Shown: positions 3,001 through 59,201 of the stretch, one piece after another
How positions within the stretch are numbered: position 1 is the stretch's first letter
Layout: each line of letters opens with the position of its first letter
Source of the DNA: Trichodelitschia bisporula
Lineage: Eukaryota
Assembly (NCBI GenBank): GCA_010356995.1
Contig: ML996687.1
Coordinates: 1,675,803-1,739,802, forward strand
Direction: 5' to 3'
Length of the DNA stretch: 64,000 nt
Notes under the pieces: generated by a model
What the model saw: the letters and a program-made list of their open reading frames with translations, nothing else
What the model was told of the DNA's origin: nothing
Database searches by the model: none
Program-made: the position numbers and the translations under genes

Positions 3001-3983
3001 GTGGTGAATATCGGTTTACAGATGACGCCGAATAAAGCCGCCACAAGTAGGTCCAGGAATACCTGCATCAAATGTCCCAGAGTAAGGCGCCTACCGGGGC
3101 CTCTAAGATACCACCACCGGCCCTTCCCCTCCAGGCACAAGCTATAAGCACTGGTGTCAATAGTGGTAATGACGGAGGGAATATAGCGCGACTCACCATA
3201 CAGATGTTGTTCCCGTTTAGTAAGATTTTTGGCAGCTTCGTCGACGTGCCCGAAAAGTCGCTGCCCCCATCATTAGAGATCATCTCTTCGATGGCAGGAA
3301 CTCCTGACGAGTGGTGCTTACAATTCAGTTACGTCTTCTAGCACCATATCTGGCTATGTTAGTTGAGAGCACGTACTGTGGAAAGGACATTTACGTACTC
3401 ACGTAGTCGTCAAATCCGAGCAATGTTCCGCTGAATTCTAATGGTCAGTAATCGAATGCTCTGTAGACAGGAGCTCATACACTCTTACCCTTGTCGCCCT
3501 TCATGATAACCCAGATCTTGGAGCCCACGCACTTCTCAATCAGTTCTGGTTCCATGGGTTAGTTGGTATTCTGAAAGGGACACGCTCACCTACCAAGCGG
3601 GAGGAGTTGAGATGCCATGCTAGGCAACGGCTGTTGGCCACCTAGAGCGAGTTATGGGAAAGGAACACGGTCAAATATGGTTGGGTACTTGTGGACGGTT
3701 GTTCGTTGCAGTGTTGGATGCGGTGGGGTGGCTTGTAACGTCCTCGCCATGTGCAAATATCACGTGATCGATCTGGGACCAAATTCTGCCTAGCGCCACC
3801 GCTCCTCCACTCCACCAGGGCCAGACACAAAGTCCAGGGTCGAGGGACCTATCATGGCGTAAAAACGTCAAAAGTCAATCACCGCGGCTGCCTGGATATC
3901 ATCTCTCCTGCTGCACCTGACTCACCGTCAAGTCCCCCGCGCCGCATACAATTATTGCACTCCTGCTGAAGAAATGGGGCGCC

Positions 3984-6900
3984 ATGCTCCTCGAGCGCTG
4001 GTCAGGAATCGCTCCGCGCAGTGTCTCCTCCGTTGTGAGATTCTCGACTCCCCGAGAAGGGTATCCAGACATGGCCCAATCTGCCTTCACCGGTGACCAT
4101 GCCAGCCTCATGCCGATGGTGTAAGTTCCCCAGTGCGTAGTTCAGTCCATGCCATACTAAGCCTTGTGCAGGTTAGATCTGCCAGTATCAGATGTCTCCA
4201 CCCCTCAACACCGTCTCTGGGATCCATCGAAGCCCATTGCATTTACATCGCCCGCCCACGACGGCCTTAAAGACAGGACTTGGCACCCGTCACAGCCTAT
4301 AGTCTTTGCGGGCCCTTCACCCAGCCATAATCGGACATGTCGGCGAAGTTTCCAAACATCAGCCGACCGACGGGCGCTCCCTCTCAAGCAGTTCAAAGCA
4401 GTGTCTGCTAGCGCCAGGACCCCGTCACTTCAGGGTCAGATGCAAAATATTCAAAAAGTTAAGGACATCAGACAGAGAATCCAAGAAGCCGAGGCTGCTA
4501 CAGCGTTGAAAGCTAAATTGAAAGCCGAGGCCGAATGGGAGGCAAAGGAAAGAAAAAGAAGGCTGGCAGTAGCGGCGAAGCTGAGGGAGAGAACAGACCA
4601 CGAGAAGATCGTGGACAGAATACAGGAAGAGATACAGACGCTCTTGGACAGGGCCCATGAGAGGCGGAATTGGACTTCACGCGAAATTGCCCATCTTGAC
4701 AACCTGGTTTCCGAGGTTGTTCAGGAATTTAAAGCGATCAAAGACGCTCGTTGGCTTGTATTGTCGCACACCTTTGACGACATCCGCCTCTCCCTCGCCC
4801 ATACTTCTAAGAGCATACAGCAAATAGAGTTGAGGCGACAGCAAGCAGAGTTGAGGCGTGAAAAAGAGGCGTGGGAAAAGCGTCAAAAAGCTGAGTGGGA
4901 AACGCGCCAGGAAGCTGCGTGGGAAAAGCTTCAGGAAGCTGCGTGGGAAACGCCCCAACTGATTGTCCTTCGGGAGCAGTATCAGTTGCAGCTCAACTAC
5001 CACCTCGCTTCGGAACGGCGAGAAGTGCCCGTCGATAGCGAACTGGACTATACTTGGGTAACCTCCAGCAGCGAACTTGTCAATACATCTGGATATGAAC
5101 AATTCCGAGACGCGACGAGATTGAGGAAAGACCCCGGGATCGAGAAGCATCTTGCATCCATTGCAAAGGGTCGCGCTACGCTTGGAACCAAATGGAGGCG
5201 TCACAAAGAACTAATTGACAAACATGCTACGCTTGCGAGGAACGTTTCGTACTTGCCGGACCCCTTGCCTCGCGACGCGCTCACTGCGATCTGCGATGGA
5301 CTAGCAGACATTTCGAACTCACTGGCCGCCTTGCAACAGCATGATGAGTACGAAGGCCGGTTTTGGATCTGGCATCGGGACAAATTCTTGAATGACATAG
5401 ATGACACCGAAGAGGAGCTACATCACTACCGCGAACTGGTAGTGTTAACCACATTTGCCGGTCCTGGCGTCAGAGCCTCAAAACTGTGGATGCGGGAAAA
5501 TACTGTGCCCTGGTTACTGGTTGCAACGCAATGGAAATCCTTGAAGCGAACCGCACAGGATCTGATTCAATGGACTCCGCCCGCCCCCAACCAACTCAGC
5601 GTCGGAACGAGGCCTCCGGCTTTCGAACAGCCAGACCTGTCTAAGTTGCGGACTTTAGGAGGCACGAAGTTCCTCCGAATTCTGAGGCGAATTGAGGACC
5701 TGTTACATCAATCGCTGCGAGATATGTCAGTTGTTGGGAAGCCCGACGGGATTCTCGAGAGGACCTTCTTGACCAAGATGCTAAGCGCCCCGTTGTGGAA
5801 GCAACAGCTCATAGCACTGCTATATCCCATGCGCAGGTTCGCCCGCCGCACAGGGAAAAACCTCAGAGTCATGTTTGATCTGGCCTCTGAGTTGACGAAC
5901 TCGCCCCGTCTCAATGACCGGCGTAAAACGGAATTTCAACGTATTGCGGACCAGGTTTCTGACCTGAACCGTTTGGTCCGAGATTTCCACGGGCATGACA
6001 CTGTAGGAATTCGGTCTCCAGATCGTATGTATGAAGAAATCATGTTCGCTGAACGGAGAGGAGCATTGGCTCATCGGTCTGCCGAATTGCGGGCGTTCTT
6101 CCTTGACTGGCTCCATTTATCTCCGGACAGTCACTTGGCGGAAACCGACGAAGGCAATACTTTGTCAGACGGCGGACAAAGCATAGCTTCAACAGATCGA
6201 CTTCCAAATATGGCGTCAACAGACATTAAAGAAACACCCATCCGATCAGGCAGCAACGTGAAGCAGGTAATACCTATTGTTGCTCAAGAGGCTGCTTCAA
6301 CAGAAAATGTCCAACTTGGCGCTTCAACGGGTGGTAATCAAGGCGTTGCCTCATTGGATATTGACCAACCGCTCACTTTTCACATTCCTGCGGATGAGTT
6401 AATGAAGACGATGTCTGCCTCTCCAGGGTCTACAGCCGCGTATTGGTCCCATGAGCTCTATCGCGGGCCGCGGGGCGAGAAAATATCCGTTTACTACGGT
6501 CGATCCTTGAAGACTTCGGAAAACGTCGCTCAGTTCTTCCTCGGCAAGCCTCTCCTTGGATTCGACATGGAGTGGAGGCCAAATGCCACCAAGTCGAGCG
6601 GGACCAAGGCGAACGTGTCCTTGATACAACTAGCCTGCGAAGATCGTATTGGCTTGTTCCATCTTGCGCTCCACAGAGGTGACAGCGTGGAAGACATTAT
6701 GCCGCCTACACTTCGGAAAATTCTTGAGTCACAAGATGTCGCCAAAGTTGGAGTGGCAATTCTAGCTGACTACACCCGCCTTCAAAAGCACCTCGGCATC
6801 CAACCATCGGGCCTCATCGAGCTCAGCCATCTTCACAATCTAGTGATGTATTCGGGTTCGCGCCCAGAAATGGTCACTCGGAAAATGGTCAGTCTGGCCA

Positions 6901-37632: not shown

Positions 37633-39008
37633 GAATCCGTTGTGGTGAATGAGACGCTGATGCGTATGCTGGGATGAGTTTCTTTGGCTTCGAAAGGTAT
37701 GAAGTGGGTGTGGTCTACGCCGCATGCCAGATTTGAATAGCTCCTTTTTTTTATGACGAGAGCGAAGGATTGAAAGTTTGACACGGCTTCCTCTTCTTCT
37801 GGGGGGTTTGTTGTATTAGTATGACCTCTTTTCATCACTGTTTCACGTTGGCGCCCTGTCTTCACTTTCACATTGGCGCCCGTCTTCACTTCCCATACCC
37901 TCTGTTTTTCTCCTTCGACCGTTTCCCCATTTCTAGCGCATCTTGGGAGCATTGGGGCCCTTTCTCTCACCCATCAGCTGCATATTTGTGCTTCAGTCCT
38001 CTGCACCGGCATTAGCAGTACAATCTCCTTCCCTACTTCACCTTTTACTAGCTATCTAACGACACGGCGTCGCGGGATCTATATCGAGCAAGCGGCCCAC
38101 CGGGGCACGGGAAGGTTAATGTACTAGATTGGTTGCTAGGGTTACGCCTTCTCCCTCTTGCCGTGATCCCTCTTTGCCGTGAACATATCGTCCCATTCAC
38201 CTCTTTCTTTCCCTAATCGTTTCCTGATTCGGAAGCATTCACGGGCCCAAGGGCCACCCTCGCCGCCCGCAGAATGGCTGATATCGAAACGCGGAGCCAA
38301 GGCCTGCAGGTGACGGCGCTCGGGCCGCTAGGCTCGGCGGTTAGGACGGGCAGACGGTGCTCCGTCTGCGGGGGGCCCGTGAGGCTTGCGTGCTTGCGTG
38401 TGCTGCGCGCCTAGATGCGGGGGCGGGGTGAGGGGTGGTCTGATTCTGATGCCATGGCTGTCGGTGCGGCGTCGCTGGGAAGGGCAGGACTCGAGTCCCC
38501 GCTGCTGTATCCCGACCGTGGGTTAGACCGCTGGATGATGGGAGCGTGCAGATCTCACGGGTAAAAGGCTAGACTTCAACACATTTGCTATTCAACAGCA
38601 GTAAGTCTCGCTAACGATATTATCCCCCTCCTTTCTCCGTTTTCGTAGCATCCGTGTCGTGACCTCGCACTTCTTCGCACTCGAGCAACTCGCACGCTGT
38701 ACAAAGCCCTCCCCCAGTTTCAACCCCGGACTCCGCGCCCCTTCCGTCTTCCCAGCGGCGAAGATCTCCGATGAGGAGATTCCCCGCGCCCTCGTCCTCC
38801 AAAGCCAGACAAAAAAACGCCAGTAAGAACCCGGCACATGACTATATGGAAGAGCGAAAGGCCACTCAGTCAGGTATCAAGCGCCCACCCCCCCAAAAAA
38901 AAACCGAACCATCCCAGCTTCAACGAGCGTATGCAGTAGAAAATCCCCATCCAAAAGTCACCCTATACACAAAAGCCACCCATCATTCTGCCCCCCAAGC
39001 ACTCATCC

Positions 39009-40920: not shown

Positions 40921-40968
<48 letters not shown>
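40921..40968. repeat. G48 homopolymer
   Basis: Read directly. Confidence 0.95.
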
Positions 40969-51695: not shown

Positions 51696-52412
51696 TGTGG
51701 CGGGGAGAAATAGGCGAGAGGAGGGCCTGGAGGAGGTAGAGGAGGTGGAGGAGAGGAAAGGTACGAGGCGCATTGTGAGAGTTGGACGGCGGCGATACCG
51801 GTTGATAGAGCCGACTTGGCGGTGAGATAGCTAGAGATAGTGGGGGGAGGGGGGGGGGGGGGGGGGGGCCCTTGTGATACGTCGAGTGAGAGATGCAGAT
51901 GGTCTCCTCTCCTGCTTTCTGTTTGTTCTGCTTCGTGATCGAGTAGGTTGGGAGTGGAGGGGAAGTAATAGCAGACCAGATTAGAGGTGTGCTGGTGTTC
52001 AAAGGTATTTAGCGGTAGCGACAGCCTTGCGTGCTCGCAAGCTTGTTCGGCTCCACGACTAGTTCTAGCTGGTTGAAAAAGCTGGTAGCTCCGAAGCTTG
52101 CTTTCCACTGGCCTTCAGGACGATCGGCGTCCGGCTCGTATCCCACCCATGGATCACTACATAGCATGGCACGCAAGGAACACAGAATCATAAGTTGTGC
52201 ACCGGTTTTCTTTCCTGCCGAACTGTTGAAATCTGGTTGACAGCATCTTGAAGGGGAGGTGACACCCGCCAATGACACAGGACAGAAGCTTCCGACTGGC
52301 CTCGTCAGTTGGTACACCCGGGGGGATGAAGATTCCGTTGAACCTCACTCTGTCCCTCTCTCTCTCTCTCTCTCCATCTTCACTGTCTTCCTTACCAGCC
52401 ACTGCGTGCTTG

Positions 52413-55057: not shown

Positions 55058-55454
55058 GGTGCGTGGGTGGGATTTACAATGTGTATTTCTAGTTGAATAT
55101 GAGCAATGTAATATGCCTAATGATGCATTTGGATGGGAATGATAGCTCTCAACGGTGCAACTGACGTCGCCCCTCTGACAGCACGGACCGTCAATGCCAA
55201 ACAAACACATATCCCATCGATAAACCGGCAGAGCCTCACATTACAAGCGAAACAGCACATCCACCGAACCAGCGGACAGTTGACAGCAGATGGGGGACTT
55301 TGATTTACGAGACTAAAGGTACACACCCTGTCAGGATCGGGTTCGGGGTGGGGGGAATCATGGGGACTTTCTGACAGGGGAAAGGAGCAGACTCGTAGCA
55401 TCTCAGCTGCGCAAATCAGCTGGACGCAGGCAAGCGCGCCGTGTAGTGAGTCGC

Positions 55455-55506
55455 NNNNNNNNNNNNNNNNNNNNNNNNNNNNNNNNNNNNNNNNNNNNNN
55501 NNNNNN
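55455..55506. other. Assembly gap (N run)
   Basis: 52 N bases. Confidence 1.
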
Positions 55507-55640
55507 AAGGGACTAAAGGGGGGAAGGTAATGCACAAACTAATGGGCAGTGAAAGCACCGAGCAAAGCCCATCCGATAGATCGCCGTCGGCCGCCGTGAC
55601 TCCTACCCCAACAAAATTTTGGAAAGAGCGGGAGCAAACC

Positions 55641-57953
55641 TTAAGCGGCATATCTGTAGGGGATTGACTGGCCATTAGAGCCTGTTGGTGTATCATCAAG
55701 TTCACGGAAGTACCGATCGTGAACACTCATTCCTAGTCGCAAGGCTGAGAGGCTGATTTCTGATTCCGCTTGGTTGTCGTCGTAGAGGCCCCTTGAAAGA
55801 GCGACCGATTTGTACTCGGACATCCTACCCTTCAGTCCAGATCGTACAGAGTTCGGCCTTAATATTGGTAAGTAAAGAACGGGTCAGGGGATTCAGAGAA
55901 GTCTAACCCATTGATCTCCTTGTCCACCCTCAGGCACTCTTTCGCAGCGTCCTTGGGGCCGCGCTCCATCAAATACTCCATGTAGAGATGGGCCAGGTCA
56001 CGGATGGCGGCAGCGCCGATGCGAGCGGAGCGGCAAATCTCGTCAAACACGCCCTTGATTCGTTCGTACTGAACGGATTCAGTCGCTGCGCTGGTAGGTT
56101 GGTCGAGTTCGAACTGGAGGTAGCCAACCCAGAACGGACGGGAGTCGAGGTAGTATTGGGTGTTCCTCTGGTAGACATCACGAGCTTCCTCGGCGGAACC
56201 CTTGATCTTCCAGAGCATAGTTGCCCACTGAGAGACGAGCGTACCCTTGGTGAAGTTGTCGCAGCCCGGGGACTTGATGTAGTCGTTGAACACAGCAATC
56301 GCCGCCTCCATCCCATGCTGGCGACGCTCCAAGCCGGCCAGCGCAGTGATAGTCTGGAGGTGACCAGGTAGCCGAAGGAGGATCCCCTGGTAGACGTCCC
56401 GCGCAACGTCGGGACGACCGCACTGCTCTTCGAAGAGCGCATACTGCAGGCGCAGGTTGGGGCGGAAGATGGGGAGAAACACGCAGCTAGCGCGCACGCA
56501 GATGTTGCGCACTTCCTCGGTCTTCCCAGGCTGCGCCTCCATCCACCGAGCGTATCTCATCCAGAACTCCTCGTAAAGTGCGCAGACGACCATACAACGC
56601 TCGTAGAGGAAGGTGATGCGAGCATAGTCGCCTTCGGCTTCTTCAGCGTTAAGATACACGCGCCAGTTTTCGAGTTCGGCTTCAGGAAGCTCCGTGACGT
56701 GGAAATACGGCCGCTTGATTTGATCTTCGTAGCTGGCCCGCTTTAGGGCTTCGGTCTGGGTATGGTTGTAGATTTCAACGTGCATGAGATCAATACGCGC
56801 GCGAGCTTCGCGTTCGATTTCGAACTCGGATTTTGTCGGATTCTCCAGCAGAGAGTCGTTGCGAAGTTGCACAAGAGTCTCGGCAGGAAGGAGATCAGAC
56901 ACGGGACGGTATGAAGCAGCGATGCGGAATCGATCGAAGTATTCTCGGTACTTCTGCATCGGAATCTGTACAATCCGGCTCAGAACAGCGTATATCTTCT
57001 CCGGAGCCTCGAGGCGCTCTTCGTACTCGAGATACTTGTCCCAGAACGGGTGCGAGTGGTAGTCGAGACCAACAGAGTCGGCACCCCGCTCAAAGAGCCT
57101 GTTTCGAAAAGTAAGCCTCAAATGTTTTCAAACGGGGATGGGGAAGGGGACTGGATTGCGGGAAGGGGCAAACGGTGTTAAAGCAGTCTTTAGCACACGG
57201 GTGTAAATTCGCCAAAAAACTTCAACGCGCCACGGATGTTCGCGACACCTTGGGCATGGAAAGCGAGGCCCAAGGTGATGATTGTAGGCCAGTGCCGGTG
57301 CTTGGTGTCTGTCCCCCTCCCCCCCCACCCCCTCCCCCCCGGGTTCAAGAAAAAGGGATTACGATCGTGTCCTCAAGTTGGTGCCTTCGCTGTGCGAAAA
57401 ACGAGCCTAGTGCTCAGGGTAAAGGTTAAGGGGGATGAAATGCGTAGCGCATCAACTTACTCTCGATTGACTTCAGGATCGTGACAAGTCTTCACCTTGA
57501 AGTCACAGTAACTGGTCCACAGATCGACCGAGTTCCGTATGCAAGCTACACCGCGCTCATAGACCATTTCTGCCGCTTCTGTCCCGGCGATGAAGAACTC
57601 TAGATCGGCGTACCGCTTCCAGAACACGAAGAACAGAGGGAACTTCGCGAGCATGCGATCGTAGACCTCACGCATGGCAGAGATGGCTTGCGGGCTGGAG
57701 TTGCGCGTGAGGCCGTTTTCAAGGCCTTCGATCGCGTTGATGAGCGCGTTCCATGGCTCGTACTCGTCAGGGTTCGCCGCCTAATGAGAGGAGGGGTCAA
57801 CGGTGCGTCTCGAGGCGTGATGAGCGGGAATGAACTTACCACTTCCGCATTGAGCTTCTTTAACTCCGCATACTCGGCATCGTCGAGTTGTGAAAGGTCG
57901 GGAACCTCGCGCCAGGGAATTTCGACCGGTGGAACGAAGTCGGCGGCAGCCAT
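55641..57953 (-). CDS. PRP39: U1 snRNP HAT-repeat splicing factor Prp39
   Basis: FPLFFVFWKRYAD, AEMVYERGV, LFERGADSVGLDYHSHPFWDKY, IKRPYFHV and LYEEFWMRYARW. Introns 57781-57839, 57099-57460 and 55858-55907. Confidence 0.93.
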
Positions 57954-58322
57954 GGCAGAAGTGGTCGTCAGAAACGAGGGTCCAGCGGATAGAATATGTG
58001 CAGATGCAGAACGACGGCGACGATGACGATGGGGTGACGATGGGGTGCGTGGAGTAGAGGTTGTGGAATGCGCGTACAGCTCTTAGTCGCTGGTTGAAGG
58101 GAGGAAGTTTGTTGGAGGAAGGGGAGTTGTGTTTTCGTGGGGGTATTGTTAGGCGTGTAAGGCGTTGGTTGAAGTTCCGGGACGACGGTGTTTTGAAGGA
58201 AAGTGAAAGCTCCTAGGTCTTTGCGTAGGTGAGCTTGACGCGCAGAGTGCTCTGTGCGTCAAGGGTGGGTAATCCTTGCAAGTCTTGCCGGTCGCCGCGC
58301 CTTCTTTGAGTGGGGGAGGAAC

Positions 58323-58324
<2 letters not shown>

Positions 58325-58368
<44 letters not shown>
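58325..58368. repeat. G44 homopolymer
   Basis: Read directly. Confidence 0.95.
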
Positions 58369-58371
<3 letters not shown>

Positions 58372-58800
58372 GGGGGATGAGGAAGGCCAGGCCAGAGGGC
58401 AAACTGTGAATAGGGTGCCAGAGTACTGCGTAATGTTAATCGAAGGGAGTTACGGGAGGGCAACTTCCGTCAAACCGTGAGCAGGCAAGTTGAAAAGCCA
58501 AGTCCCTTTAGAGCTCTTCAGATATCGAGGCCGCGTATTGCCGTTCACAGATCTACGCATCCTGCTGCCTTGGGGCCTGTCGACATTGTGTCACTTGCTC
58601 ATGGCAAAGTTGCATCGATATTGATGCCAGATTACTAGATACGGAGACGCATTACCAACTTAGTTTTTGTTGCGCTGTCGATCATCGTTGCGGACGAAAG
58701 CTCGAACTTTCCATTCATTTTTGTTTAGACATTGCCGCGAAGCCTGTCCCGAAGTACGATAGTCAGCGCATCGGTTCGTCGACCCTTTCATCCTCGGGTG

Positions 58801-58861
58801 GTTGCTGCTGGTGCTGCTGGTGCTGCTGGTGCTGCTGGTGCTGCTGCTGCTGGTGCTGCTG
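58801..58861. repeat. (GCTGGTGCT)n / (GCT)n microsatellite
   Basis: Read directly. Confidence 0.85.
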
Positions 58862-59201
58862 ACCGCAGCATAAAATACCGGGACTCGGGAGGCTGGGGGC
58901 CCCTTCGCCATCGGAGCATTTATCAGATCAAAGCACAGGGCTCGTTAGCTGCCGGGTAGATCGGAAAACAGGACGTCACTTGGTAGGTGAAATTGTGTGG
59001 ACCGTCTCCCATAGTACAAACGTAAAACTCCGCTTCTATGATCAGATCAATATGCGCACCCCGGAAGCCTGTAAGCGACAACGGGGCTCGGCACCGCTGC
59101 CGAAGCATACCCCAAACGCCGGCTCACCGTTCGACAGAATAAGAAGATTCCCATTAACCCGACTTACCGGCATGCGCTAAGCTAATAACACAAAATCACA
59201 T

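Follow-up and report, generated by a model that had tools for sequence, protein, structure and literature searches.

Why should a gene whose other coding introns measure 59 and 50 nucleotides (nt) carry one of 362 nt? The question is raised by PRP39 of the fungus Trichodelitschia bisporula, which lies on the minus strand of a 64,000-nt stretch of contig ML996687.1 (assembly GCA_010356995.1, positions 1,675,803 to 1,739,802 of the forward strand); we call this whole stretch the window and give all positions in its numbering. An earlier note, made from the sequence alone, had proposed that intron 2 of this gene is an autoregulatory switch, built on a poison exon or an alternative 3' splice site. 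The present work leads us to think, on balance, that intron 2 is the T. bisporula copy of an old long intron whose interior holds decoy or poison splice sites that cause unproductive splicing.

The gene was identified as PRP39 from its third exon, whose translation is 100% identical to a 613-amino-acid protein named for T. bisporula, the runner-up match reaching just 60% identity. Its parts are as follows (here and below, a slash within letters marks a splice junction).

57953-57839, minus strand: exon 1, beginning at the ATG at 57953 (sequence, protein comparison)
57838-57780, minus strand: intron 1, 59 nt (sequence, contigs)
57779-57461, minus strand: exon 2 (sequence, protein comparison, contigs)
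57460-57099, minus strand: intron 2, 362 nt, GT-AG, phase 2, splitting codon GA/G of E145 (sequence, contigs, and protein P0001, which reads across the junction)
57098-55907, minus strand: exon 3 (protein identity, contigs)
55906-55857, minus strand: intron 3, 50 nt (sequence, contigs)
up to TAA at 55643-55641, minus strand: last coding exon (sequence, protein comparison)

Is the long intron really removed as annotated? The RNA evidence consists of assembled contigs, a form of data from which rare transcripts are dropped, taken from two public runs (X1 and X2) of unrecorded type that represent at most one sample from one study and possibly the same data as the gene model. Contigs of both runs (depth 537 in X1 and 175 in X2) skip exactly 362 bases, joining 57098/57099 to 57459/57460, and between them skip all three coding introns, including those of 59 and 50 nt, with GT..AG ends; because they skip exactly the introns, the runs contain complementary DNA (cDNA). 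The coordinates and length that the earlier note assigned to intron 2 check on the minus strand, and the contigs join across them. Intron 2 is a genuine intron that is normally removed whole, and this one-step removal of 362 nt gives the main PRP39 product. A coding exon hidden within it was ruled out, since the annotated protein and three homologues read ...RE/LFERG... colinearly across the junction with zero insertion.

Is its length peculiar to T. bisporula? Relatives were drawn from metagenome contigs scanned with a 14-protein alignment, by means of patterns in exons 2 and 3 that are blind to the intron. Out of 288 confirmed loci the scan returned 80 fungal PRP39 loci, in which the exon-2 and exon-3 peptides were mapped; three were without exon 2, two were intron-less and cDNA-like, and 75 carried the intron. 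At every one of these 75 loci a GT-AG intron splits the same codon (..R GA/G L F E R..), and at 73 it is 317-518 nt long (171 nt at the other two), with a median of about 358 nt beside the 362 nt of T. bisporula. The other PRP39 introns of these relatives have a median of 55 nt (range 44-116 nt among 39 introns, a misassigned one of 403 having been dropped), so that the statement of the earlier note that nearly all other introns are about 50 nt long agrees with the PRP39 genes, for which alone it was checked. The 75 loci hold 60 distinct intron 2 sequences, which fall into 37 clusters at 80% identity and 19 at 70%. Their best named proteins show 86-92% identity to forms that we take to be Lecanoromycetes and 83-91% to presumed Eurotiomycetes; one locus shares 90% identity with what we take to be a Leotiomycete, a pair of identical loci shares 82% with a presumed Dothideomycete, and others are more distant. 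The fungal classes concerned diverged hundreds of millions of years ago. Since the intron sits in the same codon in 75 of 75 loci and is long in 73, beside other introns with a median of 55 nt, comparison of these sequences indicates that the length of intron 2 is an ancient, maintained trait of this one intron and not a local accident.

What fills the extra length? Conserved blocks were taken from a MAFFT alignment of 61 introns, complemented by an anchored profile of 52. In the relatives, the donor consensus GTAAGTA is followed by block A, TTTCCTTCCCATAAC, which combines a pyrimidine tract, the branch CCCATAAC and, some 45 nt past the donor, an AG; TAAC is present in at least 90% of the 52 profiled introns, and this first unit, ended by its AG, measures 40-55 nt in 43 of 57 relatives. 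Some 55-75 nt beyond it stands block B, GAYGG/GTGAGAAA, with the donor-like G/GTGAGA, and 30-45 nt after that block C, CTTCTCAC, whose branch A is followed at 12-13 nt by an AG in 41 of 58 introns (in the context CAGG, that is CAG/G, in 38 of 58). GGTGAGA and TCTCAC are each at least 90% identical in 58 of 60 distinct introns, the search having failed in loci L067 and L070, and the piece from GTGAGA to CAG, about 45-70 nt, has the size of a normal fungal intron. A variable stretch separates block C from block D, GT(A)TTTG, whose median distance from the 3' end is 73 nt (45 of 59 have it at 60-95 nt); beyond it stretches a long C/T tract, and a branch of consensus form, CTAAC or CTGAC, then leads to the final AG. 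In these fungi the consensus donor is GTRAGT and the consensus branch CTRAC; to judge from their letters, each of the relatives' inner signals is one step off this consensus and the outer signals conform to it. The long intron thus resembles a series of three short introns, spaced by two short non-coding pieces. No 5' splice site is regenerated after the inner AGs of the relatives, so stepwise (recursive) removal cannot give a correct mRNA.

Two relatives depart from this pattern in different ways. L067 and L068, which are identical, are the loci with a 171-nt intron (at 1482-1652 and 4166-4336); the intron sits at the same codon and is without blocks B and C in a distant PRP39-like gene with 38% best-segment identity to the T. 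bisporula protein, which may belong to an outgroup lineage or be a paralogue and may be of use in dating the long intron. Contig L014 is cDNA-like: its match runs unbroken over residues 142-594, with no intron at the residue-542 site at which genomic relatives stop. It keeps the last 178 nt of intron 2 and starts at the first base past the CAG of block C, a start that would fit an assembly-graph branch at an acceptor in use.

How much of this arrangement is present in T. bisporula? The elements inside its intron 2 are listed here from donor to acceptor.

57460-57455, minus strand: consensus 5' splice site GTAAGT after the exon end ...CGAGA (sequence); relatives have GTAAGT, or GTGAGT in L038 and L058
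57442-57425, minus strand: block A, a pyrimidine tract with the branch-like site CATTTCATCCCCCTTAAC, counterpart of the relatives' TTTCCTTCCCATAAC (MAFFT alignment, collinear match)
57430-57425, minus strand: branch-like CTTAAC, its branch-like A at 57426 (sequence)
57414-57389, minus strand: three proximal AGs, candidate acceptors, namely CTGAG at 57414/13, CACTAG at 57408/07 and CACAG at 57391/90, which lie 12, 18 and 35 nt past the branch-like A (sequence)
57375-57373, minus strand: in-frame TGA, reached from acceptors 57412 or 57406 (translation)
57362-57357, minus strand: GTAATC, the weak donor of the earlier note, present and with no conserved counterpart in relatives
57340-57313, minus strand: 28-nt G-tract GGGGGGGAGGGGGTGGGGGGGGAGGGGG, a G-quadruplex-type RNA motif that contains GTGGGG (57328-57323) and aligns where relatives carry GAYGG/GTGAGA
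57173-57168, minus strand: GTTTGC, 75 nt before the true acceptor, counterpart of block D and possible donor of a terminal mini-intron (alignment, sequence)
57168-57101, minus strand: C/T-rich tract (57168-57134) and distal branch-like GCTTAC (57116-57111), the lead-up to the true acceptor CAG (sequence)
57100-57099, minus strand: true acceptor AG of intron 2 (sequence, contigs)

The proximal part of this list had been picked out by the earlier note, which placed CTTAAC, CTGAG and CACTAG correctly, together with an exon that would start at 57406. The CTTAAC with its pyrimidine tract proves to be the counterpart of the best-conserved internal block of the relatives, about 70% of which then have an AG. 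The alignment of introns across species that the note had called for bears out the conservation of position, length and inner blocks, and it places some of the conserved signals elsewhere than the note had done. CACTAG is not the conserved acceptor, as the AG aligned with that of relatives is either CACAG, whose CACAG/CGAA is collinear with the AG of L061 and L071, or CTGAG, which aligns with CCGAG of L042; an 11-nt match in block A, TAACCTTTACC, is also collinear with L042. Likewise, GTAATC is present at 57362 but is not a conserved donor, the G/GTGAGA of relatives aligning with the G-tract at about 57313-57340, and the 44-nt cassette that the note had drawn from 57406 to 57363 has correct sites and length but is not the conserved part of the intron. 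Short collinear matches between T. bisporula and relatives occur after block C as well. Purifying selection on the alternative region is apparent in the relatives from blocks A to D and in T. bisporula in part, blocks A and D being kept. By its sequence T. bisporula appears to carry a reduced version, in which the proximal branch, its AGs and GTTTGC are kept, the central donor has become a G-tract and the second acceptor has been lost.

What would follow if the inner sites were used? Full retention of intron 2 reads GAG TAA, one codon before a stop, and acceptors at 57412, 57406, 57389, 57384 and 57371 give 13, 11, 10, 13 and 4 codons, respectively, before a stop. From 57412 the reading is DTRLVFRTAKAPT and then a stop; from 57406 it is, as the earlier note had it, the split codon GA/G and then E-L-V-F-R-T-A-K-A-P-T to the TGA at 57375-57373. 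The note's claim that proximal acceptors produce an early stop is thus borne out, and it extends to retention and to all five proximal acceptors, with stops after 1-13 codons. Because all alternative forms meet an early stop, every non-canonical outcome would be unproductive.

One contig suggests that intron-containing RNA exists. In X1, an unspliced contig of 346 nt (57069-57414, minus strand; depth 38.8) comprises positions 47-362 of intron 2 and the first 30 nt of exon 3, and does not extend far enough to reveal whether the other introns are spliced. The spliced X1 contigs have depths of 248 and 537, so the unspliced one stands at 7-16% of spliced depth. X1 depth is zero in the flanks beyond the transcript, which speaks against an origin of this contig from genomic DNA. 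Cover is lacking in X1 over the first 46 nt of intron 2 (57415-57459) and in X2 over the whole intron. The upstream end of the contig coincides with the first AG that follows the proximal branch-like site; the end of a contig does not amount to a junction, however, and a branch in the k-mer graph was considered as its cause and set aside with no conclusion drawn, since a junction at 57412 predicts an end at 57412 and not at 57414. For introns 1 and 3 no unspliced contig is listed in X1 or X2, where the assembler may have merged such short bubbles. Taken with the exceptional, ancient intron and its early stops, this contig, joined to exon 3 in one run, lends partial support to the general proposal of a switch made in the earlier note; the exact cassette is not supported.

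The favoured reading, that of an old intron with decoy or poison sites, would work as follows. The strong outer sites pair over a long range, and the weak inner sites would be in competition with this pairing; where the inner sites are engaged, part or all of the intron would stay in the RNA, a stop would be met within a few codons and no Prp39 would be made. The alternative RNA would be degraded by nonsense-mediated decay (NMD) or held in the nucleus, which would set the level of productive mRNA. Prp39 itself could provide negative feedback through the weak inner sites, and such feedback would be natural because Prp39 is a protein of the U1 small nuclear ribonucleoprotein (snRNP) whose human homologue helps U1 to use weak 5' splice sites. 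All these steps are inferred, from the engagement of inner sites through NMD to feedback and the sensing of U1 or Prp39. As part of the same reading, and with the same modest lean in its favour, the length of intron 2 would have been kept by selection across filamentous ascomycetes. Human PRPF39 binds GC-rich RNA and promotes the use of weak 5' splice sites (PMC9808567), a finding that, with the stop-bearing exon of mammalian PRPF39 and the retained intron of fungal srp2 described below, lends plausibility to negative feedback. Neurospora prp39 mRNA is reported to rise 2.7-fold upon exosome knock-down (PMC4549623).

Several observations weigh against this reading. Intron 2 of T. bisporula is without GTGAGA and without the CAG after block C, where it has TTGG, and these are the two best-conserved inner signals of the relatives. 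When an nhmmer profile of 59 relative introns was run against the window, the T. bisporula intron was not significant (score -0.7, E=6, first 72 nt only), block A being the only part of intron 2 that the profile aligned; as this match is not significant, homology of the interior rests on position, length and short collinear matches. Short-word BLAST between this intron and those of relatives gave matches of 9-13 nt only, and global pairwise identity to relatives (0.62-0.64) equals the median of all pairs (0.63) and is hence uninformative. When the intron body was shuffled 20000 times, 1447 of the shuffles (7.2%) also had a pyrimidine tract, a branch-like motif and an AG near the donor; the proximal arrangement alone exceeds chance only weakly, and its weight comes from conservation in relatives. 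Even there, only about 70% keep an AG after block A, and the first usable AG lies more than 55 nt from the donor in 14 of 57. The G-tract is one of 27 G-quadruplex-type motifs in the 64-kilobase (kb) window, about one per 2.4 kb. As for the RNA, L014 is a single contig end among three partial contigs examined; the 5' end of the unspliced X1 contig at 57414 is 2 nt off from the 57412 expected for a junction there, and this contig, found in one of two runs and at most one sample, may be ordinary pre-mRNA. No X1 or X2 contig joins exon 2 to an inner acceptor (57412, 57406 or 57389), a result that counts neither way, since contigs drop rare forms.

The explanation that makes most of these points holds that intron 2 of T. 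bisporula is now merely long and slowly spliced, its signals decayed, its G-tract neutral, its branch and AGs due to chance or relics, and the unspliced contig a precursor. Besides the missing GTGAGA and second CAG, the non-significant profile search and the chance rate of the proximal arrangement, the finding that no contig contains an alternative junction speaks for it, and the G-tract may indeed be a neutral expansion because such tracts are common in the window. Decay, however, does not readily account for a length of 362 nt, which is at the relatives' median of about 358, nor for block A and GTTTGC having been kept in place; where the introns of a genome measure 50-60 nt, neutral decay would be expected to shrink intron 2. 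The depth of the unspliced contig, at 7-16% of the spliced form, and the lack of listed counterparts for introns 1 and 3 (if bubbles were not merged) also sit poorly with a mere precursor. We consider this explanation unlikely, although it is the strongest of the alternatives.

Slightly less probable in our view, and likewise unlikely, is that the inner signals aid the removal of a 360-nt intron, which could be hard to excise without internal help in fungi whose intron recognition spans short distances, either because a nested mini-intron leaves first or because the ends are brought together by pairing, so that they would act as enhancers with no regulatory role. The unit from GTGAGA to CAG does resemble a normal intron in size and signals, yeast introns are known to contain zipper stems (PMC12311795), and GGUGAGA is complementary to UCUCACC, single-sequence folds pairing the two in most relatives, where the core GUGAGA:UCUCAC pairing is possible in most sequences. 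The minimum free energy fold of the T. bisporula intron joins the G-tract to the 3' C-rich tract, with about 145 nt looped out. Yet this fold has a z-score of only -2.17, which is weak, and 3 of 100 shuffles fold as well. In the relatives RNAalifold found six invariant pairs and no compensatory changes, and pairing in the 13-base-pair helix reaches 67.2%, whereas shuffles average 69.5% and 499 of 500 of them equal or exceed the real value. A hairpin between blocks B and C was therefore rejected as a demonstrated structure for want of covariation, and for the same reason it seems to be the primary sequence of the blocks that is conserved, a pattern more in keeping with splice signals than with a helix; some masking of blocks B and C by pairing may occur. 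Moreover, excision of a 55-nt inner intron would shorten intron 2 little, the lack of a regenerated donor after the inner AGs leaves no stepwise route to a correct mRNA, and a role in splicing leaves the length itself unexplained beside neighbours of 55 nt.

That the intron hosts something else, such as a small RNA gene, an internal promoter or an introner-like mobile element, is improbable. Fungal introns often host small nucleolar RNAs, and the 5' ends of the X1 contig and of L014 lie inside the intron, as an internal start site would give. Rfam searches returned only noise in window positions 56500-58500 at E up to 10 and nothing at gathering score in 10 relatives, however, and the blocks look like splice signals and not like C/D or H/ACA boxes. 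An internal start would have the first in-frame ATG after intron 2 drop about 190 residues. The window holds no second copy of intron 2 except for the low-complexity G-tract, and the site is the same in all 75 relatives, so that the intron is not a recent insertion.

Least probable of all, by a small step, is the literal 44-nt cassette exon from 57406 to 57363 as an NMD target, for although its CACTAG and GTAATC exist and its frame gives the TGA, GTAATC is unconserved, relatives keep a donor some 35 nt beyond it and an inner exon of about 55-75 nt, the unspliced contig passes straight through 57406 and 57362, and a cassette of 44 nt shifts the frame with or without a stop, so that the in-frame stop is not specific.

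How does an intron with decoy or poison sites compare with systems already described? Systems of this kind are already well known, and in animals and plants the regulated unproductive splicing of splicing factors has been studied in depth. Mouse and human PRPF39 contain a stop-bearing exon that NMD targets weakly (De Bortoli et al. 2019, PMC6582350), in line with what the earlier note had said of metazoan PRPF39. The fungal gene belongs to the same family, its premature-stop form would lower functional protein and its alternative region is conserved, whereas the mammalian cassette is found in RNA and rises with cycloheximide, and in T. bisporula no alternative junction was seen and the element consists of short intron-like units within one long intron. 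In Neurospora crassa, an intron of unusual length is retained in srp2, an SRSF5 orthologue, and mutation of upf1 stabilises it (Lareau and Brenner 2015, PMC4379411). PRP39 shares with it the setting of a filamentous-fungal splicing-factor gene, an over-long intron (362 nt against 59 and 50 nt here) at a conserved position, and retention that would bring in-frame stops. The srp2 intron sequence, in contrast, is not notably conserved among Aspergillus and its NMD was shown experimentally, whereas the inner blocks of PRP39 are conserved across classes and its NMD is a proposal.

Two further comparisons concern the design of the interior. Decoy exons drive retention of intron 4 of SF3B1 (PMC6097662), where, as here, cryptic exon-like units with conserved splice sites lie in an intron of a spliceosome gene, retention being the outcome there and the proposed one here; SF3B1 is a mammalian case under exon definition and the fungal inner units are short and intron-like, so that the resemblance is one of design only. 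Stwintrons of the Pezizomycotina (PMC6616335) likewise place an intron-like unit inside another intron, in the same fungal group. Their inner intron interrupts an outer splice signal and must leave first, unlike PRP39, in which the outer GTAAGT, distal branch and AG are intact in T. bisporula and relatives.

A bolder version of the favoured reading can be put forward tentatively, and we think it more probably wrong than right. The PRP39 intron may be an ancient sensor of U1 snRNP activity, with inner sites that would be recognised only when Prp39 or U1 is high and would then divert the transcript to a dead end. It would be the fungal counterpart of the stop exon of mammalian PRPF39, perhaps derived from the same ancestral intron, and in T. 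bisporula a G-rich tract, resembling the GC-rich type of RNA bound by human PRPF39, would have replaced the inner donor. If the ancestral intron was the same, feedback on this U1 protein would predate the divergence of fungi and animals.

If intron 2 does cause unproductive splicing as we favour, a core U1 snRNP protein would join srp2, the clearest published filamentous-fungal case that we found. The cis-element would be a legible one, near-consensus splice signals conserved across classes, in a gene that acts on weak 5' splice sites, and it would explain why one intron of about 360 nt has been kept in a genome under pressure for introns of 50 nt. The feedback loop would be directly testable in tractable species such as Neurospora and Aspergillus. 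For annotation, it would mean that intron-retaining or partly spliced fungal PRP39 transcripts need not be noise. In a literature search that left subscription journals and supplements outside, we found fungal PRP39 nowhere described as having a long or conserved intron or as undergoing alternative splicing.

Other features of the gene and the window were noted along the way. PRP39 has a GT-AG intron in its 3' untranslated region (UTR) at window positions 55313-55639, minus strand, which begins 2 nt past the stop (TAA G/GTTTGC) and ends in CCTGAC...CCTTTAG; its nominal length is 327 nt, a 52-N assembly gap (about 55455-55506) included. Its donor GTTTGC is the same hexamer that occurs inside intron 2. 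The X1 main contig has this intron removed, its loose end matching 55283-55312 exactly, and the X2 contig is unspliced through it at least to 55520; because X1 splices and X2 runs on, removal of the 3' UTR intron is alternative. The profile of relative introns also touched GTTCCTTTCCCATAAC and TGATGGGTGAGAGA at window positions 3650-3672 and 37952-37976 (E=6 and 9), so motifs like blocks A and B occur elsewhere in the window.

The G-tract of intron 2 lies in DNA with many G/C homopolymers: across the 64-kb window, G/C runs of at least 7 outnumber A/T runs about sixfold (25 vs 4), and the longest include 48 G at 40921 and 20 G at 51849. Upstream of PRP39, a run of 44 C occupies 58325-58368 on the sense (minus) strand, likely in the promoter region of the gene and about 155 nt before the point at which the longest transcript contig has its 5' end (58169), and a CAG/CAC trinucleotide repeat (cagcagcaccagcag...) is found on the minus strand at about 58800-58870.

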